49,088 nt of DNA from Gemmatimonadales bacterium (GCA_050114915.1 JASFRN010000004.1:1-49088), one strand, 5' to 3'; counted from the stretch's first letter, positions 6,065 to 37,919 are shown. The notes: generated by a model not told the origin, from the sequence alone. Translations and numbers: made by a program.

Positions 6065-6889
6065 ATGAGTTCCGTGAACTGGACGGCCCAGCCGGGCTAC
6101 GAAGACATCATCTACGAGAAGTCGGGCGACGGGATCGCGAAGATCACGATCAACCGACCCGAAGTGCGCAACGCGTTCCGCCCCCTCACCGTGCAGGAGA
6201 TGGAACGCGCGTTCGCCGACGTGCGTGACGACAGCTCGATCGGAGTGGCGATCCTCACCGGGGCGGGAGACAAGGCGTTCTGCTCGGGCGGGGATCAGTC
6301 GGTGCGCAAGAAGGGTGGCTACGCCGGCGACGACAACATCCCGCGGCTCAACGTGCTCGACCTGCAGCGGCAGATCCGCACGCTGCCGATCCCCGTGATC
6401 GCGATGGTCAACGGCTACGCGGTCGGCGGCGGGCACGTGCTGCACGTGATCTGCGATCTCACGATCGCCTCCGACAACGCCATCTTCGGACAGACCGGCC
6501 CCAAGGTCGGCTCGTTCGACGGCGGCTACGGATCGTCGTACCTGGCGCGGATCGTCGGGCAGAAGAAAGCACGGGAGATCTGGTTCCTGTGCCGGCAGTA
6601 CAGCGCGCAGGAGGCGCTCGACATGGGGCTGGTGAACACGGTCGTTCCGCTCGAGAAGCTCGAGGAGGAGACGGTGCAGTGGTGCCGCGAGATCCTCCAG
6701 CACAGCGCCACGGCGATTCGGTTGCTCAAGGCGGCGCACAACGCCGACTGCGACGGCCAGATGGGCCTGCAGCAACTCGCCGGCGACGCCACCCTGCTCT
6801 TCTACCTCACCGAGGAGGCGCAGGAGGGAAAGCAGGCCTTTCTCGAGAAGCGGAAGCCCGACTTCTCGAAGTACCCCCGATTCCCGTGA
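6065..6889 (+). CDS. menB: 1,4-dihydroxy-2-naphthoyl-CoA synthase
   Basis: [55 protein letters not shown]. Confidence 0.97.
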
Positions 6890-7770
6890 GCCGGGTTCGG
6901 GCCTGGGCGATCGCGGCCCGGCCCCGCACTCTTCCCGCCGCCGCGGCGCCCGTCCTGGTGGGGACGGCGCTCGCCTGGGAGGCGCGGGGCCTGGCTCCCC
7001 TGCCGGCGCTCGCCGCACTCGTCGGCGCGCTCCTGCTCCAGGTGGGTTCCAACTTCGCCAACGACGTGTACGACTACGAGAAGGGCGCGGACACCGACGC
7101 CCGTCTCGGGCCGCTGCGCGTCACCCAGGCCGGCCTGCTCACCGCCTCCGACGTGAAGCGAGGCATGTGGACGGTGTTCGGGTGCGCGACCCTGGTCGGC
7201 GCGTATCTCGCGTGGATCGCCGGCTGGCCCGTCGTGGTGATCGGTCTCGCCTCGATCGCGGCGGCGGTAGCCTACACGGGCGGACCGTTGCCGTTCGGCT
7301 ACCGGGGTCTCGGAGATCTGTTCGTGATGATCTTCTTCGGCTTCGTGGCGGTGTGCGGTACGGCGTACGTCCAGGTGGGCCGCGTCCCGAAGGCCGCCTG
7401 GCCGGCGGGACTGATGGTGGGGTGCCTCGCCACGGCGATCCTCGTCGTGAACAACGTCCGCGACCACGAGACCGATCGCATCGCGCGAAAGCGAACCCTC
7501 CCCGTCGTGCTCGGACGCGGTGCGGGGGTCGCCGAGTACGGTGGGTTGCTGATCGGCGCCTACGTGACCGCCTGGTGGATGGTGTGGCGCGGTCTCACCT
7601 CGCCCTGGACGCTGCTCGCGTTCCTCACCTTCCCCGTCGCGGTCGTTCTCATCGTACACCTGCGGAAGTATCGCGGCCCGGTGCTGAACTCCACCCTCGC
7701 ACACACCGCGCAACTGTTGTTCCTGTACTGCCTGCTGTATTCGGCCGGGGTCGTGGCCGGAGGCGTCTGA
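6886..7770 (+). CDS. menA: 1,4-dihydroxy-2-naphthoate polyprenyltransferase
   Basis: GTG at 6886 overlapping menB stop; [35 protein letters not shown]...KRTL. Confidence 0.93.
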
Positions 7771-7792
7771 TGGTGCCGCCGAAGGCCGTGCG

Positions 7793-8872
7793 GTGAGCGA
7801 ACGCGGGGCGGGGGCGCTGCGCACGACGATGGAGGATCCGTTCGGGCGGGAGCGTGAGGCCGTGGTGCTGCGCGTAGCCGACGATGCGGGCGCGGTCGGC
7901 TGGGGCGAAGCCTCTCCGCTGACCGGTTATTCGCCGGATGCGCTCGACGAGGTGGAGGCCGGCCTGGACGATTGGGCGGCGCGCTGGGAGCGGGGTGAGA
8001 TCGGGGAGACCGACGATGTGGGAGACGACCCGGCCCTGGACGACGCGGTCGCCCGGCTTCCGTCCGCCCGCTGCGCGATCGACACGGCTTTGTTCGACCT
8101 GGCGGCCCGCCGACTCGGTGTTCCCCTGCACGCGCGGTTGCTCGACTTCGGCCGGCCGGAGCGACCGGTTCGTCGCGTGCCGGTGGCGGCGCTGGCCAGC
8201 CTTCCCGGCATCGCGAGGCCCGGGACGCCGCCCGGCGTGGGGATGGCCACGGTGGCGGATGCCGTGGCCGGCGGGTACAGGACCGTGAAGCTGAAGATCG
8301 GAGGCGACGGCGGCTCCGAGGAAGCGTTCGCGCGCGAGCTGGAGGCGCTGGCGGAGATTCGCTCCGCCTTCCCTTACCTGCGACTGCGGCTCGACGTGAA
8401 CGGAGCCTGGGAGTCGGATGCGGCCCGGACTCGACTGGCCGAGCTGGCGCGCCACATCGAGCCGGAGCTCGTCGAGCAACCAGTCGACGCCCGGGCCATG
8501 CTCGACTTCGGTCCCGCGCCGGTTCCGCTGGCGGGTGACGAATCGGTCCGCGAGCCTGGCGCCGTCGAGCGACTGGCGGGCGCGTGCGTGGCGGTGGTGC
8601 TCAAGCCGATGGTGCTGGGCGGGCCTCGGGCCTGCCTCCGGTTGGCCGAGAGTGCCTTCGCCGAGGGGATGCAGGTGATCGTGAGCCACACGTTCGGTGG
8701 ACCCGTCGCCCATGCCGCCGCCTGTGAGCTGGCGCTGGCGCTCGCGGCGCTCGATCCCGCTTCCGTTCCGCCCGCGGCCGGACTGGCGGGGCACGACGAG
8801 CTGCCCCAGCGCGCGGGCCCGTGGATCGTGCCGGCCGGCGTCGACGGGCACGGCGTGGAGGGGCCATGGTGA
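7793..8872 (+). CDS. menC: o-succinylbenzoate synthase (enolase superfamily)
   Basis: GWGEASPL, KLKIG, RLDVNGAW, VEQP, GDES, VLKP motifs; operon context; start uncertain. Confidence 0.85.
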   Translation: MSERGAGALRTTMEDPFGREREAVVLRVADDAGAVGWGEASPLTGYSPDALDEVEAGLDDWAARWERGEIGETDDVGDDPALDDAVARLPSARCAIDTALFDLAARRLGVPLHARLLDFGRPERPVRRVPVAALASLPGIARPGTPPGVGMATVADAVAGGYRTVKLKIGGDGGSEEAFARELEALAEIRSAFPYLRLRLDVNGAWESDAARTRLAELARHIEPELVEQPVDARAMLDFGPAPVPLAGDESVREPGAVERLAGACVAVVLKPMVLGGPRACLRLAESAFAEGMQVIVSHTFGGPVAHAAACELALALAALDPASVPPAAGLAGHDELPQRAGPWIVPAGVDGHGVEGPW

Positions 8873-10272
8873 CAGGTCGCGGCGCACCCGACGAATGGCG
8901 GCTGGAGGCCGCCGCGGCCGAAGCGGGAGACCGGCCCGCCCTCGTCGCGGCCGGGCGCACCTGGACCTGGCGCGAGCTCGCCGCGGACGCCGCCCGGGAG
9001 CGCGAGGCGCTGGCCGACGCCGGCGTCGTGCCCAGCGAGACGGCCATTCGGGCAACGCTCGACGCCCACCCGACCCCGGCGACGGTCATCCGGCTGCTCG
9101 CCCTGTTCGAGGCGGGTGTGTGCGCCGTTCCACTGCCGCCCGGCCTGCCGGAGGAGGCTCGTGCGGAGCGGCTGCGCGCCCTCGGCGCACACCTCGATCT
9201 CGAGACCGGGGTACGGGTGGACCCGGACCCGGCCGCCGGCTCTGGAGCCTGGCGTGCCCGGCCCTGCGGCGCCGGACGGCACCCGCTGGCGGTCCTCTTC
9301 ACCTCCGGGAGCTCGGGTACCCCGCGCGCCGTGGAGCTGTCGCGCGAAGCGTTCTCCGCATCGGCGGCCGCCTCCGCCCGCCACCTGGGCTGGCGTCCCG
9401 GCGATCGATGGCTCTGCTGCCTTCCCCTGTTTCACGTGGGCGGGCTGTCGATCGTCACGCGCTGCCTGCTCGGACGCCGGACGGTCGTGCTCGCGGACGG
9501 CTTCGACGCGGTTACGGTGGCCGCAATGGTGGAACGCGAATCCGTGAGCCTCGCCTCGTTCGTGCCGACGATGCTCCATCGCCTGTTCGAGCTGGAGCCG
9601 GAGTGGACACCTCCGGCGGGTCTGCGGGCCGTCCTCCTCGGCGGCGCCCCGGCTTCGGAGCAGCTGTGGAGGGAGATCGAGCGGCGCGGGCTCCGCGCGC
9701 TCTCCACGTACGGGATGACGGAGACATGCTCCCAGGTCGCCACGGGTACGCGAGACGCGCCCCGGCGACTGGTCCCGCTGGACGGAGTGCGGCTGCGCAT
9801 CCGCTCCGGACGGATCGAGGTGGCGGGACCGATGCTGGCGACGAGGGTCCGGGCGGGAGGCGACGAAGAGCCCTTCACCCCCGACGGCTACCTGCGGTGC
9901 GGCGATCTCGGCCGGATCGAAAGCGGGTCGCTCGAAGTGCTGGGCCGCTCCGACCGCACGATTCTAACGGGCGGCGAGAACGTGGCGCCCGCCGAAGTCG
10001 AGACGGTGCTCGAGCGGCATCCGGGCATCCGCCGTGCCGTGGTGTTCGGCGTCCCCGATGAAGAGTGGGGGCAGGTCGTGGGCGCCGCTCTCGAGCCCAC
10101 GGACGCACCCGTACCGGCCGAAGAGCTGCGCGACTGGCTGGCCGGCCGGCTGGCCGGCCACCAGCGCCCGCGTCGCGTCGCGTGGTTGACCGAGCTCCCA
10201 CTGACGCCGACCGGCAAGGTGGACCGCGCAGCAGCCGAACGAGCGGGCAGCGTTCGAGCGTCCGTCCTTTGA
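8866..10272 (+). CDS. menE: o-succinylbenzoate-CoA ligase
   Basis: FTSGSSGTPR, LPLFHVGG, TYGMTETCSQV, GDLG, GGENV.P.EVE, LPLTPTGKVDR; operon context. Confidence 0.88.
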   Translation: MVTGRGAPDEWRLEAAAAEAGDRPALVAAGRTWTWRELAADAAREREALADAGVVPSETAIRATLDAHPTPATVIRLLALFEAGVCAVPLPPGLPEEARAERLRALGAHLDLETGVRVDPDPAAGSGAWRARPCGAGRHPLAVLFTSGSSGTPRAVELSREAFSASAAASARHLGWRPGDRWLCCLPLFHVGGLSIVTRCLLGRRTVVLADGFDAVTVAAMVERESVSLASFVPTMLHRLFELEPEWTPPAGLRAVLLGGAPASEQLWREIERRGLRALSTYGMTETCSQVATGTRDAPRRLVPLDGVRLRIRSGRIEVAGPMLATRVRAGGDEEPFTPDGYLRCGDLGRIESGSLEVLGRSDRTILTGGENVAPAEVETVLERHPGIRRAVVFGVPDEEWGQVVGAALEPTDAPVPAEELRDWLAGRLAGHQRPRRVAWLTELPLTPTGKVDRAAAERAGSVRASVL

Positions 10273-10316: not shown

Positions 10317-10700
10317 ATGCTCAGCATGTCCACCGATCACTTCGAGGCCCTCGTCGCTCGCGCGCTACGTCTCCTGCCGCCCGAGTTCGAGGCGCACATG
10401 GACAACGTCAGCGTCGTCGTCCGGGAGTGGCCCACCCGCGAACTGTTGGCTTCGCTCGGCGTGGATCCGGACGACCCGGACGACACGCTGTTCGGTCTCT
10501 ACGAGGGCGTCCCGCTCACCGAGCGGCGGCACGACGACATGCTGCTGCCCGATCAGATCACGATCTTCCGGGGACCGTTGCTGGAGTTTTGCCGGGACGA
10601 GGAAGAGGTGGTCGAAGAAGTGCGGATCACGGTGCTGCACGAGATCGGCCACTTCTTCGGGATGGACGAGGATCGCCTCGACGAGCTCGGCTACGGTTGA
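10317..10700 (+). CDS. Zincin-like metallopeptidase family protein
   Basis: LFGLYEGVPL..R...LPDQITIFRGP, HEIGHFFG; start 10317 or 10326. Confidence 0.85.
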   Translation: MLSMSTDHFEALVARALRLLPPEFEAHMDNVSVVVREWPTRELLASLGVDPDDPDDTLFGLYEGVPLTERRHDDMLLPDQITIFRGPLLEFCRDEEEVVEEVRITVLHEIGHFFGMDEDRLDELGYG

Positions 10701-10726
10701 ACCGGCCGACCCGGCGTCCTGCCGGA

Positions 10727-10846
10727 GGCATGGGGGGTCTAAAAAAGAGACCCGCCCGACCGGACCTTCGCCCCCCCCGCATGCGGCTGCAAAGCAGCCA
10801 GGAACACGAAGACCACAGTACGGACGGGCTCTTTGGCTGTCCCGCC
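10727..10846 (-). ncRNA. Candidate structured small RNA (boundaries approximate)
   Basis: Directly downstream of a near-consensus leftward promoter; long-range pairing 10821-10834 with 10744-10758, central hairpin 10785-10799, U6 run near 3' end; G-U pairs favour the minus strand. Confidence 0.45.
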
Positions 10847-10852
10847 GACCGT

Positions 10853-10881
10853 ATGCTACCTCAGCCCGCCTCTATTGTCAA
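10853..10881 (-). promoter_or_regulatory. Leftward sigma70 promoter TTGACA-N17-TAGCAT
   Basis: Read directly: -35 at 10881-10876, -10 at 10858-10853. Confidence 0.7.
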
Positions 10882-10898
10882 GGTTGATACCCTAACAA
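10875..10898. promoter_or_regulatory. Candidate operator TTGTCAAGG-N6-CCCTAACAA
   Basis: Imperfect palindrome (7/9 right arm), same position and left arm as 17939-17962. Confidence 0.5.
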
Positions 10899-10909
10899 AC
10901 CTCGTGGGC

Positions 10910-10938
10910 TTGCCAAACCCGATCCTAACTGTCAGATT
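10910..10938 (+). promoter_or_regulatory. Rightward promoter TTGCCA-N14-TGT-CAGATT, probably leaderless
   Basis: 17-nt spacing with extended -10; ATG 10946 follows a 7-nt gap with no SD. Confidence 0.55.
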
Positions 10939-10945
10939 TTGTCCC

Positions 10946-11605
10946 ATGCCGTATACGAATCATGTTCGGATGCCCGGTCTCGGGGAGACTCAAAAAGCAC
11001 TTCTGCACAGCCTCAAGCGCCGTGGTCCCTCCACCACCGGCGAGCTCACCGAGGATTTCACGCTGGCGACCGGCACGGTCCGCGAGCACCTCAAGTCTCT
11101 CGAAGCCCGACGTCTCGTGGAACGCGTCGGTACCCGGCGCGAAGGTCCGGGACGACCTCACGTAATATACGGTCTGACGGAGGCGGGCGAAGCCCTGTTT
11201 CCGCGCGGCGAAGCCGAGCTGTTGACCGAGCTCGTCGAATTCCTGCTCGATGCCGACCAGGACGATCTCATCGACAGGTTCTTCGAGCAGCGCGCCGACA
11301 GGGCGGCGACGGAGGCCGCACGCCGCGTGGCGCGGATGACGGTCGAGCATCGCGCCGAGGAAGTCGTGCGCATTCTCGCCGACGCCGGGTTCATGCCGGA
11401 GCTCGGCACCGACGAAGAGACGGGCGACACGATCGTCAAGCTCTGCCATTGTCCCCTCAAGTCGGTGATAGCGGTGACGCGCCGCCCGTGCGCCGCCGAG
11501 GAACGTTTCGTCTCGCAGGTGCTCGGCGCCGAGCTCGAGCGGCTCACCTACATGCCCGATGGCGACGAGTGCTGCTCCTACCGGGTGCGTCCGCCCGGTC
11601 GTTGA
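10946..11605 (+). CDS. Winged-HTH transcriptional regulator, SufR/COG2345-like, Cys-rich C-terminus (copy 1)
   Basis: HTH (T.GTVREHLKSL...GRP...Y.LT..G), LCHCP-x11-C..E and GDECCSY; colinear with copy 2. Confidence 0.85.
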   Translation: MPYTNHVRMPGLGETQKALLHSLKRRGPSTTGELTEDFTLATGTVREHLKSLEARRLVERVGTRREGPGRPHVIYGLTEAGEALFPRGEAELLTELVEFLLDADQDDLIDRFFEQRADRAATEAARRVARMTVEHRAEEVVRILADAGFMPELGTDEETGDTIVKLCHCPLKSVIAVTRRPCAAEERFVSQVLGAELERLTYMPDGDECCSYRVRPPGR

Positions 11606-11633
11606 TCGGAGTCGAGTCGCGTTCCGCGCGCCG

Positions 11634-12422
11634 TCACAGATCCGCCCCGCGGAACCGCCAGGCGGCGATCAGGAGCGGTACGCAGATCCAGGTGAAGAGA
11701 GACCCCGCGGCGACCGCCGTGCCCGTCCCACCTCCGAAGAAGGCCCGGAATACCGCCCCGGTGTAGCCCATCAACGCCGCCTGGTCGAACTGCATGAGCA
11801 GCAGGATGCGCGCGGTGTCGATCGGATTCAGCAGGCTGGCGACCAGGGCCGGACCCTCGAGCACGGTCCCCGGAAGGGTCAGGGACACGGTCGCGAACAG
11901 GCCGTCGTACAACACGGTGAGCGCCAGCCAGGCGAGGATCGCGACGCCCATGCCGGCCGCGCGGTCACGAATCGTCACCGCGGTCAGGAACGCGAGCGCG
12001 AGGCTGCTCAACGTGAGCGCGCCGGTCACCGCGAGCAGACGCAGGATTCCGCTGCCGCCGCCGTGCGTCAGTGCGGCGACGACGAGCGGTGCCCCGAGGC
12101 CCAGCCACTCGACACCGACCAGGGGCAGGGCGACGCCGGCGAACAGTCCGCAGAACAGCTCGCGGCGGCCGACGGGCTGAGCGAGGAGCATGCGGTTGAA
12201 GTCCCGTGCGCCGTACAGGTAGAGCGTGCCGAACAGCAGTCCCACCAGCGGGGTGACGAGCAGCACCGGATTGACGAGGCCGGCGGCCGCGCGCGCCACG
12301 TCGCCTTCGAGCAGGATCAGCGCCTGTGCGAGCCCGAACAGAGCGGCGCCGTAGACGAGGATCCAGCGTCCGCGGGCCACGTCACGCAGTCCGTAGCGGG
12401 CGATGCGGGCGGCCGTCCTCAC
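11634..12422 (-). CDS. nosY: NosY ABC transporter permease
   Basis: Multi-TM; LLAQPVGR, LLNPID.ARIL, ALMGYTGAVF; follows nosF. Confidence 0.9.
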   Translation of the reverse strand: MRTAARIARYGLRDVARGRWILVYGAALFGLAQALILLEGDVARAAAGLVNPVLLVTPLVGLLFGTLYLYGARDFNRMLLAQPVGRRELFCGLFAGVALPLVGVEWLGLGAPLVVAALTHGGGSGILRLLAVTGALTLSSLALAFLTAVTIRDRAAGMGVAILAWLALTVLYDGLFATVSLTLPGTVLEGPALVASLLNPIDTARILLLMQFDQAALMGYTGAVFRAFFGGGTGTAVAAGSLFTWICVPLLIAAWRFRGADL

Positions 12423-13222
12423 GACGCCTCCACGGCCGCCGTCGGCGCGCCCCGCGACTGTCCGGCCTCCGCCTCGATCTCCATGAGGCAGGCCACCGCC
12501 CGCTCGAGGTCGTCGGTCTCCATCCTCCGTAGCAGCTCCTCGGTACTCCCGTCGAACCGTATCCGGCCGTCCACCAGGTAGACGAGGTGGTCGGCCAGGT
12601 CACGGAGCTCGCTCAGCACGTGCGACGTGATCAGCACGGTGGCGCCGCGCTCCCGTTCGGCCCGGATCAGGTCCTTGAGCCGCGAGCGGCCGAGCGGATC
12701 GAGACCCGCGGTCGGCTCGTCGAGAATCAACAGGTCGGCATCGTAGCGAAACGCGATTGCCGCGTTCACCTTCTGCCGCGTTCCGCCCGACAGGGTTCCG
12801 ACCGGCTTGTCCAGGGAGGGTTCGAGGCCGAACAGCGTGAGCAGCTCGCTCCGTGGGCGTCGGGTGAACGGCTCGTCGTCATCCGCGTCGGTCCCGGCGC
12901 CGCGCAGACCACGCAGCCCGTCGATGAACCGGAGAAGCTCGCGAACCCGAAGGTTGTCGGGGAACGCCGGCTGCTGCGGCATGTAGCCGATACGCTCGCG
13001 GTAGAGCGGGTCGCCGTTCACCACGACGCCGTCGAGCTCGATTCGGCCCGCGTCGGGCCGCAAGAGGCCGAGCACCGCCTTCACGAGCGTGGTCTTGCCG
13101 GCCGCGTTGGGGCCGACGAGCGCGGTGATCCGCCCGGTCGGGACTTCGACGTCGAGCCCCCGCAGGACCTCCAGCCGTCCGTACCGCTTGCGCAGCCCTT
13201 CGACGCGCAGCCGGGCGCTCAT
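12419..13222 (-). CDS. nosF: NosF ABC transporter ATPase
   Basis: Walker A GPNAAGKTT, LSGGTRQKV, LILDEPTAGLD; ATGA overlap with nosD. Confidence 0.9.
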   Translation of the reverse strand: MSARLRVEGLRKRYGRLEVLRGLDVEVPTGRITALVGPNAAGKTTLVKAVLGLLRPDAGRIELDGVVVNGDPLYRERIGYMPQQPAFPDNLRVRELLRFIDGLRGLRGAGTDADDDEPFTRRPRSELLTLFGLEPSLDKPVGTLSGGTRQKVNAAIAFRYDADLLILDEPTAGLDPLGRSRLKDLIRAERERGATVLITSHVLSELRDLADHLVYLVDGRIRFDGSTEELLRRMETDDLERAVACLMEIEAEAGQSRGAPTAAVEAS

Positions 13223-15219
13223 CGAACCGCTCCCGGGCTCCGCGGGTCGGCTACCGAGGCCATGGCGGGCGCCGGGTCGACGAGATTCTCGGGCGTCAGC
13301 GCCGGGATCAGCGCTTCCGTCCAGTCGAGGAAGCTGACGAAGAAGCTGCGCAGGAGGATCGTGGTCACCGGGGCGCGCTCGACGACGAGGGCGAACAGGC
13401 GCACCGGCCGGAACGGCACGTCACCCGTGCCGTCCCCGTCGAGGTCGTATCCCCGGTAGCGGTCCCAGTGGTTCCCCCGGAACGAGCTCCGCACGTGTCG
13501 ACCGTTCGTCGTCACGTCGAACGTGTTGGCCACGAAATCGTTCTGCCGGAAGCTCGACCTGGTGGAGTTCGAGAGCAGCCGAATCGCGCGGCCGTTCTCC
13601 CGGAACAGATTGCCGTCGACCGTCGTCCGGTCGAACCCTTCCGCGTAGAGGCCCACCGAGTTGGCGCGGAAGACGTTTCCGGTGATTCGGCTGTCCGTGA
13701 TGTCCTTCAACAGCAGCCCGTAGGACGAGCTGCCCTGGTTGTGCTCGAACCGGTTGCCGGCCATCGCGATGTCCGACGTGTACATCACGGCGACGCCGGC
13801 CACGTTGTCGGCGAAGATGTTTGCCTCGTAACGGCCGCCGTCGGAGAACATGAAGTGCAGCCCGTAGCGCAGGTTTCCGACGATCTGGTTGTGGGCGATG
13901 CGGCCGTCCTCGACGAACTCGAAGTAGATGCCGTCGCGATGGCCACTGACCCGGTTCGAGGTCACGACGACCCGCTTCGAGTACCAGCCGTGGATGCCGT
14001 TGCCCGAGTCGGTCTCCGACGTGCCCGTACCGGTGATGTCGTTCTCGATCACGCGGCAATCGGTAGTGCGGGCGAGGTAGATCGCGAAGAAGCCGCCGTG
14101 GATACGGTTGTGGTCGATCTCGCAGCGCTCGGCGTTCTCGACTCGCACGGCGGCCCGGTCCTCCAGGTAGCTCACTCCGACGTTGCGCAGGTCGAGGCCC
14201 GTGATCCGCACGTCGTCGGCCGTCACGGTGAACAGTTGCCGTTGCCCCTCGCCGTCGACGACCGGCCAGCCTTCGCCTTCGATCGTCAGCGGCCGGTCGA
14301 CGACGACCGTGGGTTCGCGGTACAGGCCCGGCCGGACCAGAATCCGGGCACCGGGCGCCGCCCGCCGCACGGCCTCGCCGATCGACGCGAGGGCGCCGCC
14401 CGGCTCGACGACGAGCCAGAGCGGTCGGTCATCGCTCCCGGCGTCCGGCGGAGACTCGAATCCGGCCGCATCCTCGCCCGCCCCCGGCGATGCCGGCCGC
14501 TCGTGGTCCATCGCGGCATGGTCGACCGTCCGTTCGGGCAGGTCACCGCAGCCCGCGGCGCCCGCCGAGAGCGTCGCGGCGAGGAGCAGGACGAGCGCGC
14601 CGCCCGCCCGTCCTCCCGCCGCGCCGCGTTTCGCCAGCCGGCGCTCGAGCCAGCAGCGCCAGCCGGCGAGGAGTCCGGCGGCGATCGCGATCCAGCCGCC
14701 GAGGGCCGGCAGCGACACCGCCGTGAAGTTCAGGAGCTTCTTCGAGCCGATCAGCGGCGGCTGGTACGTCATCCCGGGGACTTTGATGATCGCCCGCTCG
14801 GCGTCGAGGTTGTGGCCGTAGTCGTAGCCCCAGGCGTAGAAATCGGCGAGCCCGGCGACGGCGGCCAACGCCAGCAGGCCGAACCAGGTGCAGATCATCC
14901 ACCGGCGTCCCACCGCGGCGGCCAGCAGACCCCACCCGATCAGCCCGGCGAGGATCCACGGCATCCAGCTCAGCTCGCGAATCGAGTCGGGGTGGATCTC
15001 CTTCATCCCGATGTAGTGGTTCAGCCCATTGATGTTCTGCAGATCGTGCGGGTGGACGCCGTCGATCGTGTTGATCCGGATCAGCAGGCCGATCCCCTCG
15101 GGGAACTGCGGCGCGTCGAGGTTGATCTGCCACAGGGGCACGAAGTAGAGGAGCACCAGGGCGAGGGCCGCGGCGAGCACGATCAGGCGAGATGCGGGGC
15201 CGGCCGTTTTCGGTCTCAT
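13219..15219 (-). CDS. nosD: Fusion of NosB-like membrane protein and NosD maturation protein (666 aa)
   Basis: N-part: W.I.L.APQFPEG, NINGLNHYIGM, YDYGHNLD...IKVPGM.YQPPLIG.K.LLNF; C-part: beta-helix NosD (GNGIH.W, RDGIYFEF, RYGLHFMFS, GYDLDGDG.GDVPFRP); one open frame. Confidence 0.85.
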   Translation of the reverse strand: MRPKTAGPASRLIVLAAALALVLLYFVPLWQINLDAPQFPEGIGLLIRINTIDGVHPHDLQNINGLNHYIGMKEIHPDSIRELSWMPWILAGLIGWGLLAAAVGRRWMICTWFGLLALAAVAGLADFYAWGYDYGHNLDAERAIIKVPGMTYQPPLIGSKKLLNFTAVSLPALGGWIAIAAGLLAGWRCWLERRLAKRGAAGGRAGGALVLLLAATLSAGAAGCGDLPERTVDHAAMDHERPASPGAGEDAAGFESPPDAGSDDRPLWLVVEPGGALASIGEAVRRAAPGARILVRPGLYREPTVVVDRPLTIEGEGWPVVDGEGQRQLFTVTADDVRITGLDLRNVGVSYLEDRAAVRVENAERCEIDHNRIHGGFFAIYLARTTDCRVIENDITGTGTSETDSGNGIHGWYSKRVVVTSNRVSGHRDGIYFEFVEDGRIAHNQIVGNLRYGLHFMFSDGGRYEANIFADNVAGVAVMYTSDIAMAGNRFEHNQGSSSYGLLLKDITDSRITGNVFRANSVGLYAEGFDRTTVDGNLFRENGRAIRLLSNSTRSSFRQNDFVANTFDVTTNGRHVRSSFRGNHWDRYRGYDLDGDGTGDVPFRPVRLFALVVERAPVTTILLRSFFVSFLDWTEALIPALTPENLVDPAPAMASVADPRSPGAVR

Positions 15220-15237
15220 CGATCTATCGCGGGTCGA

Positions 15238-15272
15238 TTCCCGCCCGGGGCCGTCGCGGCCCCGGACGGGAA
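15238..15272 (-). terminator. Strong intercistronic hairpin after nosZ (no U tract)
   Basis: UUCCCGUCCGGGGCCG-CGA-CGGCCCCGGGCGGGAA, 16-bp stem with one G-U pair. Confidence 0.7.
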
Positions 15273-15284
15273 GGGAAGAGGGTC

Positions 15285-17240
15285 TCAGTCGCCCGTGCTG
15301 AAAGCGATCTGCGGGTTGCTGCCGCGCGGCGACACCCGGACGTAGCCCTGCATCTCCTGGTGGAGCGCCGAGCAGAAGTCGGTGCAGTAGAAGGGGAACA
15401 CGCCCTCGTACTGCGGCACCCAGCGCAGCGTCCGCGTCTCGCCCGGCATCACGAGGAGCTCGGCGTTGCGGGCGCCCATCACCGCGAAGCCGTGCGGGAC
15501 GTCCCATGCCTGCTCGAGGTTCGTCATGTGGAACAGCACCGTGTCGCCGACCATCACGCCCTCGATGTTGTCCGGCACGAAGTGGGTGCGGATCGCGGTC
15601 AGGTAGACGTGCACGGTCTTGCCGTCACGCTCGACCCGGGCCTCGTCCTCGCTGCGCGTGACGTAAGGATTCGTGTTCTCCTCGATCGGGTACATCTGCA
15701 CCTGCTTGTCCCTGATCAGGCTCGCCGGCAGGGCCTGCGCGTAGTGCGGCTCGCCCATGGTCGGGAAGTCGAGCAGCATGCGCATCTTGTCGCCCGAGAT
15801 GTCGATGAGCTGCGCGGCGTGCGCGAGCTCGGGGCCGGTCGGCAGGTAGCGGTCCTTCGTGATCTTGTTGAGCGCCACCAGGTACTGGCCCCACGGCTTC
15901 TGCGAGTCGCCGCCCGGGATCATCAGGTGTCCGATCGAATAGTAGACCGGCATCCGGTCGAGGACCTCCCAGGTGCCCAGCTTCCACTTCACGACCTCGG
16001 AGGAGATGAACATCGAGGTGTAGGCGTTGCCGCGGCCGTCGAACTCGGTGTGCAGCGGGCCGAGCCCGGGGTCCTGCACCTCGCCGGCCACCACGGCCTC
16101 GTAGTTGAGCACCGGGATGCCGTCGATGACGGTGTCGAACTGCTCGTTCGCGATCGCGTCGAGCATCTTCGAGAACGAGTGCACGGGAATCACGGTGGCG
16201 AGCTTGCCCCCCGCGACGATGTACTCGCCGGTCGGATCGACGTCGACGCCGTGCGGCGACTTGGGCGTCGGCAGGAAGTAGACCATGCCCTCGCAGTCGG
16301 CCGGGATCAGCACCCGCACGTCCTGCTCCATCTCGTGGTGGGCGATCCGGTTCTCGTCCAGGTGGTTGTGGGCGTAGCGGGCCTGCCGCAGCTCGCCGGC
16401 CCCGTCGGCCACGCACTCCTCCGCCCGCTGCCAGTTGACGGCGGCCACGAAGTCCTTGTCGTTCTGCGAGGCCTGGATCTCGAGCAGCGAATTGGCCTGT
16501 TCGGTGTTGTAGCTGGTCAGGAAGGCCCAGCCGTACGACGGGCCCTTCCCGGAGTGCGAGAGATCGTAGTTGTAGCCCGGCACCTCGATCTGGAACGCGA
16601 TGTCCATGTCACCCGGCTGGTCGGCGCGGATGAACGAGATCGTGCCGTCGAAGTTCTCCTTGTAGGTGTCGATCGACACGTCCGCCTGCGGAATCGGCAC
16701 GCTGAACCGCGTCGAGGCGACCAGGTATTTCGAGTCGGGCGTGATGAACGGGGACGCGTGGTTTCCGGCCGAGTTCGGGATTTCGAGAATCTCCTCGGTC
16801 TCGAACGTGGACAGGTCGATTCGCGCCACGCGCGGCGTGTTGTTGCCGTTGATGAACAGCCAGCGGCCGTCGGGCACGCCGTCGGTCTGAGAGAGCTCGG
16901 GGTGGTGGGCGTCGTCCCACGGGATGAAACCGAAGCTCGTCTGCAGCATGTCCTTCGTTTCCTCGGTGAAGCCCCAGCCGTTCTCGGGGAACTGCGAGAA
17001 CACGGGCACCGTCTTGATGAGCCGGCCCGACGGCAGGCCGTGAACGGTCACGTTCCCGCTGAAGCCGCCCGACATGAAGGCGTAATACTGGTCGTACTCG
17101 CCCGGGGGCACGTACACCTCCGACGCGGCGTCTCCGGCGCCCGCCGCCGGCCCGCCGCCGGACTGGCAGGCGTAGGTGAACGTCCCGGCGAACGCGGTTG
17201 CCGCGGCCAGCAGCACGATTCGGCGTCCTGTGATCTTCAT
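15285..17240 (-). CDS. nosZ: Sec-dependent (clade II) nitrous-oxide reductase
   Basis: CuZ His motifs WDDAHHP, GNHASP, PKSPHG, GPLH, IGHL, EPHY; CuA PHGF...YCTDFCSALHQEM; Sec/lipoprotein-type signal (TYAC); no C-terminal heme domain. Confidence 0.97.
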   Translation of the reverse strand: MKITGRRIVLLAAATAFAGTFTYACQSGGGPAAGAGDAASEVYVPPGEYDQYYAFMSGGFSGNVTVHGLPSGRLIKTVPVFSQFPENGWGFTEETKDMLQTSFGFIPWDDAHHPELSQTDGVPDGRWLFINGNNTPRVARIDLSTFETEEILEIPNSAGNHASPFITPDSKYLVASTRFSVPIPQADVSIDTYKENFDGTISFIRADQPGDMDIAFQIEVPGYNYDLSHSGKGPSYGWAFLTSYNTEQANSLLEIQASQNDKDFVAAVNWQRAEECVADGAGELRQARYAHNHLDENRIAHHEMEQDVRVLIPADCEGMVYFLPTPKSPHGVDVDPTGEYIVAGGKLATVIPVHSFSKMLDAIANEQFDTVIDGIPVLNYEAVVAGEVQDPGLGPLHTEFDGRGNAYTSMFISSEVVKWKLGTWEVLDRMPVYYSIGHLMIPGGDSQKPWGQYLVALNKITKDRYLPTGPELAHAAQLIDISGDKMRMLLDFPTMGEPHYAQALPASLIRDKQVQMYPIEENTNPYVTRSEDEARVERDGKTVHVYLTAIRTHFVPDNIEGVMVGDTVLFHMTNLEQAWDVPHGFAVMGARNAELLVMPGETRTLRWVPQYEGVFPFYCTDFCSALHQEMQGYVRVSPRGSNPQIAFSTGD

Positions 17241-17279
17241 GGCTCGTATCTCTCCTGGGGGTGGTCGAGCTGGTGGGTG

Positions 17280-17843
17280 TCAGGATCCGTCGTCCGCGGT
17301 GGTCGCCGCCGCGTCGGCGTCGTCATCGACGCCGGTGGGGGCCGAGGACGTCCGGAGGTACTCGAGGACAGCGCGCGCGTCCTCGTCGGTGAGCTGCTGA
17401 TCGGGCATCGGCGTGTAATACTGCGCCAGCAGCTTCTTCACTTCCGGATGGCGCGTGACCATCTCGTCGGTGTTGAGGATCATGTTCATCACGTACTCCG
17501 GCTTCCGGCGCTCCGTGACTCCCCCGAGGGGCGGGCCGACGTAGCGCTCGTCGAGCTTGTGGCACGCGGAACACTTGGTGGTGAAGATCTCCTGGCCACG
17601 CGCCACGAGCTCATCGTCGAACTCGTCTTCGAGATCGAGGTCGCGGACGGGACCGATGCCGTAAATCATCTCCTCCGCGGAGATACCGGCGGCCGAGGCC
17701 TCGGCCGCCGCCTCCGGGCTCAGCGACGGTTCGTCCGTGGCCGCCGAGCCACCTTCGCCGCCACACGCCACCGCGGTGAAGAGAACCAGCAGGAAGGGCA
17801 GCGAGCCGATGCGTCGCTGTCGGTGGATTGTCAGGGTCTGCAT
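17280..17843 (-). CDS. Monoheme cytochrome c lipoprotein (NosC-type)
   Basis: Lipobox AVAC, CSACH, VGPPL.GVT.RR...MNMILN, PMPDQ; directly upstream of nosZ. Confidence 0.9.
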   Translation of the reverse strand: MQTLTIHRQRRIGSLPFLLVLFTAVACGGEGGSAATDEPSLSPEAAAEASAAGISAEEMIYGIGPVRDLDLEDEFDDELVARGQEIFTTKCSACHKLDERYVGPPLGGVTERRKPEYVMNMILNTDEMVTRHPEVKKLLAQYYTPMPDQQLTDEDARAVLEYLRTSSAPTGVDDDADAAATTADDGS

Positions 17844-17916
17844 GCGATGGACCTCGCTGTATCTGGTTCACGGAGCCTGCCTGCCGACGAGCCCCGTATC
17901 CGGTCTGATGGGCCCG

Positions 17917-17945
17917 ATTCTACACCCGGGGTCGAGAATTGTCAA
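17917..17945 (-). promoter_or_regulatory. nos operon promoter TTGACA-N17-TAGAAT
   Basis: -35 at 17945-17940, -10 at 17922-17917. Confidence 0.78.
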
Positions 17946-17962
17946 GGATGTTTCCTTCATAA
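17939..17962. promoter_or_regulatory. Candidate operator TTGTCAAGG-N6-CCTTCATAA
   Basis: Imperfect palindrome overlapping the nos -35; equivalent to 10875-10898. Confidence 0.5.
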
Positions 17963-17973
17963 CCACTTAAACC

Positions 17974-18002
17974 TTGACAATAGGGCACGGTCGTGGCAGA
18001 GT
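17974..18002 (+). promoter_or_regulatory. Rightward promoter TTGACA-N14-TGG-CAGAGT, probably leaderless
   Basis: 17-nt spacing, extended -10; ATG 18009 follows a 6-nt gap with no SD. Confidence 0.6.
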
Positions 18003-18008
18003 GCTGCC

Positions 18009-18719
18009 ATGCGCGAAGCAGGTGAAGTGCGGATACCGGGGCTCGGCGACACCCAGCGGCAGCTGTTGCTCCTGCTCAAGCGGCGGGGTCCGTCGACGAC
18101 CGCGGAGCTCGCCGACGAGTGCCACCTGGCGCAGGGGACGCTTCGTGAGCACCTGTACTCGCTGGACGCACGGGGCCTGATCGAACGGGCCGGATCGCGC
18201 CGGCAGGGGCCGGGCCGACCCCGGGTCGTCTACCGCCTGAGCGACGTGGGTGAGAGCCTGTTCCCGAGCAACGAGGCGGAGCTCCTGGCGGCTTTCGTGC
18301 AGCACTTGCTCGCCACGGGGCGGGCCGAGCTGGTCGACCGGTTCTTCGAACAGCGCTCCGAGCTGGCCTATGCCGAGGCGGCGCCCGCCCTCGAAGGGGT
18401 GCCCGTCGAGGAACGCGAGCGAGAAGCGGTCCGGGTGCTCAAGGCGGCCGGGTTCATGCCCGAGTTGCTTCGCGACGAGGCCACGGGGGAGATGATCCTG
18501 CAGCTGTGCAACTGCCCGCTCAAGTCGGTGATCGCCATCACCCGGCGGCCCTGCGCGGCCGAGGAGAAGCTGGTGGCTCAGCTGGTGGATGCACGGATCG
18601 AGCGCTTCGCCTACATGCCCGAGGGGGACGACAGTTGCTCGTATCGCATCCGGCGCGCGCCCGCGGCGGAGGAGGATGACGCGCAGGGCGACGGACCGAC
18701 CGGCCAGCGGGGGAACTGA
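18009..18719 (+). CDS. Winged-HTH transcriptional regulator, SufR/COG2345-like (copy 2)
   Basis: C-terminal part of track ORF 15192..18719; LCNCP-x11-C..E, GDDSCSY; 126/219 identities with copy 1 by hand count. Confidence 0.85.
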   Translation: MREAGEVRIPGLGDTQRQLLLLLKRRGPSTTAELADECHLAQGTLREHLYSLDARGLIERAGSRRQGPGRPRVVYRLSDVGESLFPSNEAELLAAFVQHLLATGRAELVDRFFEQRSELAYAEAAPALEGVPVEEREREAVRVLKAAGFMPELLRDEATGEMILQLCNCPLKSVIAITRRPCAAEEKLVAQLVDARIERFAYMPEGDDSCSYRIRRAPAAEEDDAQGDGPTGQRGN

Positions 18720-20460: not shown

Positions 20461-21834
20461 ATGACCGCGCATTCGCTGTCCGTGCTGGTGGTCGATGACG
20501 ACGAGACGATGCGCGAGGTGCTCACCGTGCGCCTGGAGGACTGGGGGTATCGAGTAGACACCGCCGCCGACGCCTCGGCCGCTCGTTCCGCGATCGAGGA
20601 CCGCGACCCCGACGTGGTACTGGCCGACATCGTCCTGCCCGGCATGTCCGGGATCGATCTGCTGCGCCTGCTGAAGGAGGACGACGCTTCGCGGCCGGTG
20701 ATCCTGATGACCGGCCATGGAAGCGTCGATCTGGCCGTCGAGGCGATGAAGGAGGGCGCCGAAGACTTCCTGACGAAACCGCTCGAGACCGACAAGCTCG
20801 AGGCCGTGCTGAAGGCCGTGATCGCCGACCTCTCCCTGCGGCACCGCGCCGCGGAGCTCGATCAGCAGCTGGAGGACCAGCCGGGATTCGCGGGGATGAT
20901 CGGCCGCAGCGACGCGATGCAGGAGGTGTTTCAAACCGTCGAGCTGCTGGCGAAGAACGAAGCCTCGGCGATCATCACGGGCGCGAGCGGAACCGGAAAA
21001 GAACTCGTGGCCCGTTCGATCCATCAGCTGAGCAACCGCGCGGACGGTCCGTTCGTCGCGCTCAACTGCGCGGCGATCCCGGAGGGCCTGATCGAGAGCG
21101 AGCTGTTCGGCCACACGAAGGGAGCGTTCACCGGCGCCTCGCAGATGCGCCAGGGCGCTTTCGAGCTGGCCGACGGCGGGGTGCTGCTCCTCGACGAGAT
21201 CGCCGAGATGCCGATCAACCTGCAGCCCAAGTTCCTGCGCATTCTCGAAGACCAGAAGGTCCGGCGTCTCGGCGGTAGCCGCGACATCCAGTTCGACGTC
21301 CGGGTGATCGCGGCCACGAACCGCCCGATCGATGCCGCGATCGCGGACGACATGCTCCGCGAAGACCTCTACTTCCGGCTGGCCGTGTTCGAGGTCCGGC
21401 TGCCCGACCTGAAGGATCGGGAGGGGGACATCCCTCTGCTCGTGCAGGCGTTCATCCGCGAGTTCAACCGGAAGCACGATACCGACGTCCAGGGACTGCG
21501 CGACGACGCGCTCGAGCAGCTCGAGCGCCATCATTGGCCCGGCAACGTGCGCGAACTGCGCAACGTCATCGAGCGCGCCACGATCGTCGCGGGCTCGGGC
21601 TGGATCGAGACCGGGCAGCTACCCCTCTTCCTGCGAGCGCCGCGCGAGGAAGACGAGCCGATGCTCACCCTCGAGGTGGGCGAGACGACGGCGAGCCAGG
21701 CCGAGAAGGAGCTCATCCTCCGCACGCTCGAGGTGACGGGCGGCAACAAGGCCGAGACCGCGCGGCGGCTGGAGCTCGACGTCAAGACGATCCGGAACAA
21801 GCTGAAGCGGTACGAGGAAGAGGACGAGCAGTAA
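20461..21834 (+). CDS. sigma54-dependent response regulator (NtrC family)
   Basis: Receiver (VVDDD, D..LPG, KP), GASGTGKE, ESELFGH.KGAFTGA, WPGNVREL, Fis-type HTH. Confidence 0.95.
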   Translation: MTAHSLSVLVVDDDETMREVLTVRLEDWGYRVDTAADASAARSAIEDRDPDVVLADIVLPGMSGIDLLRLLKEDDASRPVILMTGHGSVDLAVEAMKEGAEDFLTKPLETDKLEAVLKAVIADLSLRHRAAELDQQLEDQPGFAGMIGRSDAMQEVFQTVELLAKNEASAIITGASGTGKELVARSIHQLSNRADGPFVALNCAAIPEGLIESELFGHTKGAFTGASQMRQGAFELADGGVLLLDEIAEMPINLQPKFLRILEDQKVRRLGGSRDIQFDVRVIAATNRPIDAAIADDMLREDLYFRLAVFEVRLPDLKDREGDIPLLVQAFIREFNRKHDTDVQGLRDDALEQLERHHWPGNVRELRNVIERATIVAGSGWIETGQLPLFLRAPREEDEPMLTLEVGETTASQAEKELILRTLEVTGGNKAETARRLELDVKTIRNKLKRYEEEDEQ

Positions 21835-21856
21835 TGAGGGGTTCGGGCGTCCGCCG

Positions 21857-23293
21857 GTGAAGGTCTCGACGAAGCTGTGGACCGGGTACGGGCTCCTGCT
21901 GGTGCTGCTCGGGTCCTTGCTGGTCTATCACGTCCGCATCATCGGCGATCTCGCCGAAGCCCAGGAGCGGGTCACGGAAGTATCGGTGCGGCTTTCGGTG
22001 AGCAGCGCCGAACAGCTGTACCGGCTCGACCGGCTCGTCGACGCGGGGCAGAAGTTCGGCGTCACCCGCGACTCCCTCTACGCGCAGCTGTACCACCGGA
22101 CGGCGGCCGAGATGGACAGCGCCCTCGCGGTGCTCGAGGGCCTGTCGAGGGGGGCGCCCGAGGGCAGCCGGGTCCGGGCCCTGATCGACGAGTGGGAGAG
22201 TTTCCGCGGACCGGACGACCCACCCCGAATCCCCCCCGCCGACGTTCTCGCGGCCGAGAGCGACAGCCTGCAGCAGGCGATCATCGACGTCTCCACCGCC
22301 GCGCGGTCCTCGATGCTCGCCGAGAAGGAACGGGCGGGGAGAGACGTGGAGCGCGCCCGTCGCAGCGCCTGGATCGTCGGTGGGGCGGCGCTGGTGGCCG
22401 GCCTGTCGATCATCCTGCTCATCATCCGCTCGATCTCGGGGTCGCTGAACCGGCTGTCGGCGGCGACGCGCGAGGTGGCGCAGGGGAAGTTCGGGCACCG
22501 GCTCGGAGGCACGCACGACGAGGAGTTCCGCGAGCTGGCGGAGAACTTCAACCAGATGGTCCATCGCCTCGAGGAGGTCGACGAGCTGAAGCGCGGCTTC
22601 ATCTCCGGAATCTCGCACGACCTGAAGAGCCCGCTCGCATCGATGAAGGAGGCGATGCAGGTCCTGATCGACGGCATCCCCGGCCCCCTCAACGCCCGCC
22701 AGGAGCGCTTGCTGCGACTCGGCCTCGCCAGCGGTGATCGCCTGTCGTCGATGATCTCCGATCTCCTGACCCTCTCGCAGCTCGAGTCCCACGCGATCGG
22801 GTACACGTTCGAACCCGTCGACCTCTCCGACGTGGCGCGCAGGGCCGCCGAACGACTCGAGGCCCGGCTGCAGCAGGCCGACGTGAAGCCGCAGGTCGAC
22901 GTGCCGGATCGGCTGGTCGTGGCCTGCGACGAAGATCGCGTGTCCCAGGTGATCGAGAACTTGCTCGACAACGCGCTGAAACACTCGCCGCGTGGAAGCG
23001 CGATCGAGCTGCGACTGCATCGGATCGAAAACGGCGGCGAGCCGGAGGCGGAGATCCGCGTGTCGGACCGCGGGCCGGGTGTGCCAGAGGAGGACCGGGC
23101 CGCGATCTTCGAGCGCTTCGTGCAACGCGGCGAGCTAGGTGGGTCGGCGGCGGGGGTCGGTCTGGGGCTGACGATCTGCCGCGAGATCGTGGCGGCACAC
23201 GGCGGTCGCATCGGGGTGGAAGAAAACCCCGGCGGGGGCAGCACGTTCTCGTTCACCCTGCCGCTCGAGCAGCCGGAAGTCGCCCCGGCATGA
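21857..23293 (+). CDS. HAMP-domain sensor histidine kinase
   Basis: Two TM helices, HAMP, SHDLKSPL, NLLDNALK, D.GPG, GVGLGL. Confidence 0.93.
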   Translation: MKVSTKLWTGYGLLLVLLGSLLVYHVRIIGDLAEAQERVTEVSVRLSVSSAEQLYRLDRLVDAGQKFGVTRDSLYAQLYHRTAAEMDSALAVLEGLSRGAPEGSRVRALIDEWESFRGPDDPPRIPPADVLAAESDSLQQAIIDVSTAARSSMLAEKERAGRDVERARRSAWIVGGAALVAGLSIILLIIRSISGSLNRLSAATREVAQGKFGHRLGGTHDEEFRELAENFNQMVHRLEEVDELKRGFISGISHDLKSPLASMKEAMQVLIDGIPGPLNARQERLLRLGLASGDRLSSMISDLLTLSQLESHAIGYTFEPVDLSDVARRAAERLEARLQQADVKPQVDVPDRLVVACDEDRVSQVIENLLDNALKHSPRGSAIELRLHRIENGGEPEAEIRVSDRGPGVPEEDRAAIFERFVQRGELGGSAAGVGLGLTICREIVAAHGGRIGVEENPGGGSTFSFTLPLEQPEVAPA

Positions 23294-35421: not shown

Positions 35422-35422
35422 G

Positions 35423-37869: not shown

Positions 37870-37919
37870 GCGGGGAAGCCCTGGCCGCTTTCCCGGAACC
37901 CCGCCGACCGGAGGCGATC

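Follow-up and report, generated by a model that had tools for sequence, protein, structure and literature searches.

The nitrous oxide (N2O) reductase (nos) locus of a Gemmatimonadales bacterium, in which the nos genes lie between two related regulator genes, raises the question of how nos expression is controlled in this organism. Organisms that carry a clade II NosZ are thought to be major N2O sinks, the switch-on of their nos genes is poorly known, and, to our knowledge, many of them lack NosR and the classical NnrR/DNR circuits. The locus was analyzed within a stretch of 49,088 nucleotides (GCA_050114915.1, JASFRN010000004.1:1-49088; G+C about 70%), hereafter the window, from an assembly of 2,910,273 bases in 197 contigs that is 90.8% complete. 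Five minus-strand genes of the locus run toward the regulator gene reg1, and the second regulator gene, reg2, is on the plus strand and divergent from the c-type cytochrome (cyt c) gene that leads the nos operon (Table 1). The reductase was assigned to the clade II (Sec-dependent) type by its score of 929.2 bits with TIGR04246 (cut-off 625), as compared with 377.1 bits for TIGR04244, the model of the twin-arginine translocation type, and neither NosR nor a Crp/FNR-type protein was found among the 40 of the 45 window gene calls that were scanned against NCBIfam. From sequence comparison and from analogy with characterized relatives, it is moderately probable that Reg1 and Reg2 are dimeric iron-sulfur (Fe-S) repressors of nos, probably responsive to nitric oxide (NO) and similar to ArnR, and that the Reg1 unit arose by duplication.

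Reg1 (219 amino acids) and Reg2 (236 amino acids) were aligned by BLASTP with 126 identities in 215 positions and no gaps (E = 3e-89), as expected from an earlier note on this DNA that had described two gapless paralogous winged helix-turn-helix (wHTH) regulators around the nos genes, and the four cysteines that it had listed (Cys167, Cys169, Cys182, and Cys210) were found in both proteins. They are the only Reg2 homologs in the genome. The SufR model TIGR02702 was aligned with residues 15-213 of Reg1 and 14-214 of Reg2 (profile positions 1/2 to 207/208; E = 2.5e-18 and 7.7e-18, respectively), and this full-length, sub-threshold match agrees with the SufR-like (COG2345) identity that had been proposed. 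The scores of 66.5 and 64.9 bits were under the cut-off of 178.8 bits, so the two proteins were not classed as SufR proper, and they are not encoded beside suf genes. The Rrf2 family was absent from the NCBIfam matches of Reg1 (7 matches) and Reg2 (10 matches). Searches of the PDB with the Reg2 sequence and with the family profile returned matches to the N-terminal wHTH only, with no SufR-like entry among them.

The pattern of conservation points to an Fe-S site and to a particular mode of DNA recognition. In an alignment of 37 family sequences, C169, C182, and C210 were each present in all 37 and C167 in 31; when 48 sequences were taken (the subfamily together with the SufR outgroup), R46, H48, G69, P71, C169, C182, and E185 were each present in all 48, R70 in 45, C210 in 47 (the lone exception is on a truncated contig), and C167 in 43, with a histidine at that position in the three suf-linked proteins. 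According to the accessible part of a preprint of December 2025 (bioRxiv 10.64898/2025.12.26.696629), the [4Fe-4S] cluster of Mycobacterium tuberculosis SufR is held by C179, C192, E195, and C220 in a cryo-electron microscopy structure, and DNA is recognized by a helix-turn-helix with an R-R-H motif and by a 'GRP' AT-hook that reads A/T-rich DNA. The pattern C-x12-C-x2-E-x24-C of the Reg family has the spacing of these four ligands, and the residues described there as DNA-binding and cluster motifs are kept in Reg1 and Reg2. The role suggested for C167 as a conserved ligand was upheld in part: the residue is present in both regulators, but by homology to the M. tuberculosis protein E185 is more likely than C167 to be the fourth ligand of the cluster. 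The DNA-binding signature REHLKSLEAR, GRPHVIYG is shared by Reg1 and all single-copy clade-A regulators (defined below), whereas proteins of the Reg2 type have the altered signature REHL[Y/N]SLDAR, GRPRV[V/L]YR (GRP-R, Y/N50, and D53); Reg2 is therefore regarded as the diverged copy.

The distribution of the subfamily was surveyed by searching 5.8 billion proteins with Reg2, which gave 52 matches at E <= 1e-5, 40 of them with at least 41% identity and all of the named ones from Gemmatimonadota. A Reg2 match was present in 214 genomes of a sample of 401 from the phylum (the tallies include the unpublished genomes G182 and G057), and the matches fell into two tiers by bit score. The lower tier (about 75-100 bits) adjoined sufB, sufC, sufD, and sufS in the three loci that were fetched and was on that account taken to be true SufR; no homolog of this tier was found anywhere in the genome of the present organism (G000), in which sufB, a sufD-like gene, and sufS are located on contig C16:34432-38800 with no SufR-type gene adjacent and no operator. 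The upper tier (at least 115 bits) comprised 29 genomes. A nosZ gene was present in 164 of the 401 genomes, and an upper-tier regulator lay beside it in five (G000, G290, G178, G056, and G318). Linkage between the regulator and nos thus does exist in other genomes, as had been anticipated, but it is too narrow for the regulator to be a general feature of clade II nos clusters, and most members of the subfamily are found beside genes of Fe-S repair and NO stress. Elsewhere in the upper tier, the regulator is mostly the first gene or a member of a conserved cluster of an ApbC/Mrp Fe-S carrier, a COX1-like membrane protein of 420 amino acids, a SufT-like DUF59 protein, and at least one DUF2249 protein, often with RIC/YtfE, a nirK-like gene, or a cbb3-like heme-copper oxidase. 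A regulator match of any kind was seen in 2 of the 30 genomes of the family of G000 versus 136 of the 166 in family f3.

A tree of 54 rows was built by a quick method with support from the Shimodaira-Hasegawa-like approximate likelihood ratio test only; a weak third paralog (L039_16843) and 22 of the 40 close metagenome proteins were left out of it. When the tree was rooted on the suf-linked proteins, Reg1, Reg2, the G290 protein, and metagenome sequences formed one clade (clade A), and the second clade had nos- or nirK-linked early branches and a large inner clade of the ApbC type. Pattern scans based on the clade-A alignment retrieved 5 genome contigs and 80 metagenome contigs, among them 18 rows of close relatives (L065 being the contig of G290 and L076 identical to L067): the regulator was divergent from cyt c-nosZ-nosD-nosF-nosY or at the nosY end in 11, beside a nirK-like gene in 4, and beside RIC in 1, and 2 rows were too short for an assignment. 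The whole twin layout (metallopeptidase gene, Reg1 type, nos operon, Reg2 type, and OmpA-like gene, with both operators) was found on one contig of 65.7 kb (L071), and at L074, L075, and L080 sister regulators are placed likewise beside a nirK-like gene. Three regulator paralogs within 8.3 kb, with two palindrome sites between them, were observed at L039 (G249:C1:1427000-1446999) in a complete genome without a nosZ match.

The back-to-back promoters that had been described upstream of both regulators were recovered at their given positions, with the leftward boxes, a gap of 28 nt between the divergent -35 boxes in both units, the rightward -35, TGn, and -10 elements, and an ATG 6-7 nt further on. 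Sites as good as the two leftward promoters occurred on average 0.1 times in shuffled sequences; the rightward promoters were missed by the promoter scanner, as their -10 hexamers match the consensus at only 3 of 6 positions. As had also been noted, the segments 10872-10885 and 17970-17983 are exact reverse complements of each other, and a perfect 10-nt inverted repeat is formed by 17938-17947 and 17972-17981. The 9-mer TTGTCAAGG has three exact copies in the 2,910,273-base genome, all at this locus (10875 on the plus strand, 17939 on the plus strand, and 17972 on the minus strand), and the reversed-sequence control gave 8. The 24-bp palindrome TTGTCAAGG-N6-CCTTGACAA, allowing no more than 4 mismatches in 18 positions, has two sites in the genome, which are both at these promoters and have 2 mismatches each; the reversed genome gave one site with 4 mismatches and none better. 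The concentration of these sequences at the locus thus goes beyond chance. At the first of the two sites, O1, the palindrome reads TTGTCAAGG-TTGATA-CCCTAACAA, and at the second, O2, it reads TTGTCAAGG-ATGTTT-CCTTCATAA.

The same palindrome recurs elsewhere in the family. A first set of related loci (33 loci, 510,804 nt) yielded 22 sites with no more than 4 mismatches, spread over 20 loci, as compared with none in the reversed control; all 22 are intergenic and precede the operon of the regulator, RIC, or a cbb3-like oxidase operon, and four are perfect (18/18). A site of the O1 type was also found in L071, L072, and L081. In 15 of the 18 clade-A contig rows, the palindrome lies about 70 nt before the ATG of the regulator. 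When 16 clade-A promoters were aligned, the left half-site TTGTCAAGG was invariant in 14, the middle half-site was weaker (CCnTCATAA or CCnTAACAA), and the right copy CCTTGACAA carried the -35 of the regulator, followed by the -10 and, 6-8 nt on, by the ATG. At the RIC-linked paralog of G290, the arrangement CCTTGACAATAGG...CAGACT...ATG is the same as in the reg2 promoter, and the palindrome covers the -35 of the regulator itself. The spacers of the palindrome are 74% A+T (n = 33), as compared with about 30% in the genome, and such A/T-rich spacers fit an AT-hook. Each half-site contains a -35 hexamer; nonetheless, conservation of that box alone does not account for the palindrome, which recurs beside homologous regulators in other genera and is present also where transcription goes one way only.

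In all 16 aligned clade-A promoters, the regulator ATG follows the -10-like hexamer by 6-8 nt, which leaves no room for a ribosome-binding site, and the regulators are probably translated from leaderless mRNAs. At L043, L050, and L058, the operator stands before a cbb3-like ccoN/ccoO pair (253 and 138 bits, below the cut-offs), which is followed by the regulator and by ApbC, DUF59, and DUF2249 genes; this oxidase could be an NO reductase-like enzyme.

Based on these comparisons, the following switch is proposed. Each subunit would hold a [4Fe-4S] cluster on C169, C182, E185, and C210, by homology to M. tuberculosis SufR, and the cluster-intact dimer would bind the 24-bp palindrome, with the helix-turn-helix reading the half-sites and the GRP AT-hook reading the A/T-rich spacer. 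The left half-site holds the -35 of the cyt c-nosZ-nosD-nosF-nosY promoter, and the bound regulator would shut off synthesis of the N2O reductase and would also tune the divergent, leaderless gene that encodes it. If the cluster is damaged, most likely through nitrosylation by NO as in ArnR and M. tuberculosis SufR, the DNA would be freed and nos turned on. Repression is inferred from the precedent of the family (SufR and ArnR), from the regulon of Fe-S repair and NO stress genes of the sister regulators, and from the nos promoter, which should not need an activator, since it matches the consensus at 11 of 12 positions. The genome has no ApbC-type cluster, no RIC, and no nirK above the cut-off (59.6 versus 296.3 bits), and because these are lacking, the two units of the window are the only predicted targets in this organism.

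Pairing of the two regulators was modeled, and the Reg2:Reg1 dimer had an ipSAE of 0.70, as compared with 0.00 for the best control, with at least 67% of contacts in agreement between runs and a predicted local distance difference test (pLDDT) value of at least 78 for the partner. Of 80 solved complexes, 58 attain that mark, as do 2 of 110 mismatched pairs; these counts apply only roughly to the present model, which was built on alignments made for this analysis. The interface of the model is formed by helices 85-116 and by residues 167-174, beside the cysteine loop. A Reg1:Reg2 heterodimer, and with it cross-talk between the two units, is allowed by the model and not demonstrated by it.

Several observations speak against the proposed repressor switch or limit it. 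The second half-site is degenerate at all nos-type promoters (2-4 mismatches, as compared with 0-1 in other members of the subfamily), and no site with 4 or fewer mismatches was found for the nos-linked regulators of another family (L034, L035, and L004) or at the nirK-linked loci L040 and L049; a common operator for the regulators of L034, L035, and L004 was sought by eye and was not established. The regulator is next to nosZ in only 5 of the 164 nosZ-bearing genomes. A class II activator, too, would classically sit where the operator is centred, at about -40.5 relative to the predicted nos start. No nirK was found above the cut-off (nirS and nor were outside the search), which would make neighbouring cells, and not the cell itself, the source of NO. 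Direct sensing of O2 is disfavoured by the slow loss of the cluster from DNA-bound M. tuberculosis SufR in O2, as described in the accessible part of the preprint (bioRxiv 10.64898/2025.12.26.696629). The AlphaFold2 monomer model, for which 12 aligned rows were used, was of low quality (pLDDT 61.2 and predicted template modeling score 0.53) and gave no cluster geometry, and close paralogs are expected to pass the heterodimer test, by which homodimers and heterodimers were not separated.

Among the alternatives, the one that fares best, while still unlikely, is that the regulators are activators, the holo form at low O2 and NO recruiting RNA polymerase from about -40.5 in the style of a class II FNR site, so that loss of the cluster switches nos off. 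The palindrome centre at 17950.5 is about 40 bp upstream of the nos start predicted from the -10 at 17917-17922, NosZ is an enzyme of the anaerobic type for which expression with an intact cluster is physiologically sensible, and nos regulators characterized elsewhere are activators of the Crp/FNR type (PMC11539149, accessible part). Against this, the -35 and -10 of the nos promoter already agree with the consensus at 11 of 12 positions, SufR and ArnR, the two characterized COG2345 proteins in the sources as far as accessible, are both repressors, and the palindrome over the own -35 of the RIC-linked paralog has the layout of a repressor site.

Binding of a metal ion (copper or zinc) by the C-terminal Cys/Glu site, in place of an Fe-S cluster, would couple nos to metal supply and is considered very unlikely. 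The ArsR/SmtB metalloregulator model NF033788 does match the N-terminal domain weakly (20.9-22.7 bits), the linked NosZ and NirK are copper enzymes, a CopD-like gene (54 bits) was seen near the G290 paralog, and zinc has been found bound in preparations of ArnR (PMC12343034, accessible part); however, the ligand set and its spacing equal those of the [4Fe-4S] site of M. tuberculosis SufR, and the commonest neighbours of the subfamily are the Fe-S carrier and repair genes ApbC, SufT-like DUF59, and RIC. That the regulators govern only themselves or some other target, with the overlap of the nos -35 as a by-product of divergent promoters in a short intergenic region, is hardly probable either, because, even though a half-site with its own TTGACA makes two back-to-back -35 boxes of any such palindrome and most members of the subfamily are not beside nos, the divergent reg/cyt c-nosZ layout and the position of the site are kept across contigs with NosZ 78-97% identical, the only two sites of the genome are at these promoters, and the sisters at L074, L075, and L080 are placed alike beside the nirK-like gene.

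The proposed repressors were compared with characterized systems, of which ArnR of Corynebacterium glutamicum is the closest in role. COG2345 is a large family in which, beyond SufR, only ArnR has known targets, according to the accessible part of the preprint (bioRxiv 10.64898/2025.12.26.696629), and ArnR is described in the accessible part of its own report as a [4Fe-4S] dimer that represses narKGHJI and hmp, with a cluster that decays very slowly in O2 and DNA binding that is abolished by NO (PMC12343034). Like the Reg family, ArnR is described as having a wHTH, a dimerization helix, and a C-terminal sensory domain with three cysteines (C179, C193, and C223 in ArnR), and, like the role proposed for Reg1 and Reg2, its role is the control of a respiratory N-oxide reductase operon, the cluster being needed for DNA binding. 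It differs in its targets (nar and hmp, as opposed to clade II nosZ, or nirK in the sister loci) and in its phylum, and its operator is described as a short 10-bp consensus flanked by two A/T-rich sequences (bioRxiv 10.64898/2025.12.26.696629, accessible part), unlike the 24-bp, GC-containing palindrome of the Reg family. In this comparison, which drew on published descriptions of ArnR, the Reg family differs also by a fourth cysteine (C167), present in 43 of the 48 sequences of the alignment.

SufR itself (M. tuberculosis Rv1460, cyanobacteria, and Streptomyces) shares with Reg1 and Reg2 the full-length fold family, the RxH helix, the GRP AT-hook, and the spacing C-x12-C-x2-E-x24-C; it is a repressor, and the M. 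tuberculosis protein is described in the sources, as far as accessible, as responding to NO through its cluster. Unlike SufR proper, Reg1 and Reg2 reach 65-66 bits as compared with 178.8 and are encoded away from suf, and the suf-linked SufR of Gemmatimonadota forms the outgroup of the tree. NsrR, a [4Fe-4S] NO-sensing repressor of the Rrf2 family, is alike in the proposed logic, namely the NO-released control of NO stress and denitrification genes that include those of the RIC/YtfE type, but belongs to an unrelated protein family. The Crp/FNR-type regulators of nos (FNR, DNR, and NnrR) likewise act on nosZ, in response to O2 or NO and through a palindrome near -41.5, but are activators with a fold of the cyclic nucleotide-binding type; a Crp/Fnr protein has been proposed as the regulator in a thermophile with a clade II nosZ (PMC11539149, accessible part).

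In a literature search, no paper was found that ties a SufR-like or COG2345 protein to nosZ or to denitrification genes of Gemmatimonadota, and relatives may be included among the 326 COG2345 members of the preprint. In a paper on haloarchaea, SufR is named solely as an example of the ArsR family, with no direct link of the family to the nitrogen cycle known (PMC11218638). The kind of regulator is known; what is new is the subfamily, its operator, its regulon of nos, nirK, and Fe-S repair genes, and the twin layout in which a candidate RNA derives from a gene. For one lineage of Gemmatimonadota, a candidate nos regulator, a defined 24-bp operator, and a plausible signal (Fe-S damage, probably by NO) can be named; if the proposal is true, COG2345 gains a further regulon besides those of SufR and ArnR, made up in Gemmatimonadota of nos, nirK, and modules of Fe-S repair. 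Only a few lineages have the nos linkage, and whatever goes past sequence comparison is to be read as inference.

The leftward promoter of the Reg1 unit faces an element of about 110 nt in place of the cyt c gene. The earlier note had one regulator copy gating a small RNA (sRNA), and a conserved, structured element was indeed found there, but it is a remnant of the 5' coding region of cyt c that was carried along by duplication. Its core is homologous to cyt c codons 7-35 or so (signal peptide and lipobox), with 77-89% identity over 53-80 nt by BLAST and alignment to the cyt c genes of L032/L065, L064, and L066-L068/L073, and it is without the 5' untranslated region and the start codon. The simplest history of the Reg1 unit would be that the nos-reg block was duplicated in tandem and that the upstream copy then lost the part from nosY through most of its cyt c gene; reg1, the operator with the two promoters, and some 100 nt of cyt c would have remained. 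The element is matched at 89-90% identity over 108 nt by L071, L072, and L081, in which the promoter spacer and the downstream DNA do not align, and it folds as one long hairpin with a minimum free energy of -59.6 kcal/mol (z -4.66; none of 200 shuffles as stable). Covariation amounted to one compensatory and three one-sided compatible changes in 41 pairs, with only four sequences. A terminator-like site was located at 10767-10748 on the minus strand, leftward of the promoter. Rfam 15 gave no matches at E <= 1 in 10600-11000 and none at the gathering score in the whole window. The element is no dispersed repeat, being single-copy in the genome, nor a small open reading frame of the leftward transcript, as a 1-nt indel and the length of the T-run shift frame and stop between the window and L071, L072, and L081.

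The fragment would serve either as an sRNA or as a terminator that stops an orphan promoter. A terminated orphan transcript, the hairpin of which is kept as a shield of the upstream gene from antisense transcription, comes slightly short of an even chance; a trans-acting RNA is only tentatively suggested, with a clearly lower probability, and it is a little less probable again that the RNA is not made at all. The hairpin of the remnant can form in real cyt c mRNAs too, over the signal-peptide codons (L064, L065, L066, and L073, as read from the alignment), and the nos transcript itself may be regulated through this structure. It is quite improbable that a regulatory RNA gene was made by the duplication out of the first ~100 nt of nos operon coding sequence, with Reg1 gating an sRNA that mimics the 5' end of the nos mRNA in sequence and structure, and that two Fe-S sensors with diverged DNA-binding residues set N2O reductase, one transcriptionally and one after transcription; on such a reading the RNA could be a decoy for a factor that binds the hairpin of the real nos transcript.

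The coordinates of the features are collected in Table 1.

Table 1. Features of the nos locus, with positions counted from the first base of the window.
Feature	Position	Strand	Basis or remark
Small metallopeptidase-like gene	10318-10700	+	Left end of the locus, before reg1
Candidate hairpin-forming transcript, ~110 nt, ending in a T-run	10738-10847	-	Remnant of cyt c codons ~7-35
Leftward sigma-70-like promoter of the Reg1 unit, TTGACA-17-TAGCAT	10853-10881	-	Scan, 10/12 consensus matches
Operator O1 (predicted)	10875-10898	.	2/18 mismatches to the family palindrome; overlaps the leftward -35
Rightward reg1 promoter, TTGCCA (10910-10915), TGt-CAGATT (10930-10938)	10910-10938	+	Read by eye; N17 spacer, which includes the TGt; ATG at 10946, 7 nt past the -10
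reg1, SufR-like (COG2345) regulator, 219 aa	10946-11605	+	BLASTP, NCBIfam, family alignment
nosY-like ABC-2 permease	11634-12422	-	Cluster c10, kept in nos loci; named from its position after nosF
nosF-like ABC ATPase	12419-13222	-	ABC ATPase family matches and conserved synteny
N-terminal membrane domain (aa ~1-210) fused to NosD (aa 281-653)	13219-15219	-	TIGR04247, 415 bits
nosZ, Sec-dependent (clade II) nitrous-oxide reductase	15285-17240	-	TIGR04246, 929.2 bits
c-type cytochrome lipoprotein (CSACH), leads the nos operon	17280-17843	-	Position kept in L064-L073
nos operon promoter, TTGACA-17-TAGAAT	17917-17945	-	Scan, 11/12 consensus matches
Operator O2 (predicted)	17939-17962	.	2/18 mismatches to the family palindrome; overlaps the nos -35
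Third half-site, CCTTGACAA	17972-17980	+	Contains the -35 of the reg2 promoter, then TGg-CAGAGT to 18002
Rightward reg2 promoter, TTGACA (17974-17979), TGg-CAGAGT (17994-18002)	17974-18002	+	Read by eye; ATG at 18009, 6 nt past the -10
reg2, SufR-like (COG2345) regulator, 236 aa	18009-18719	+	BLASTP, NCBIfam, family alignment

The nosY-like product had no NCBIfam match, and neither nosL nor nosR was seen in the nos operon. The membrane domain that is fused to NosD occurs as a separate gene of about 200 amino acids (cluster c39; 34-38% identity) between nosZ and nosD in L034 and L035, and the fusion is retained in L064, L065, L071, and L072. Directly upstream of the nos locus is a run of menaquinone biosynthesis genes (menF-like, menD, menB, menA, menC, and menE) at 3152-10272 on the plus strand. 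A sigma-54-dependent response regulator and a sensor histidine kinase are encoded at 20461-23293 on the same strand, 1.7 kb past reg2; such a pair also adjoins the nos locus of G290 (clusters c16 and c32) and could be a second input to nos. An NiFe uptake hydrogenase (small and large subunits, a b-type cytochrome, and a maturation protease) is encoded at 34285-38417 on the plus strand, 15 kb from nos, and H2 may donate electrons for the reduction of N2O in this organism. A PAS-GGDEF-EAL protein of cyclic di-GMP turnover is encoded at 28401-30482 on the plus strand of the window.

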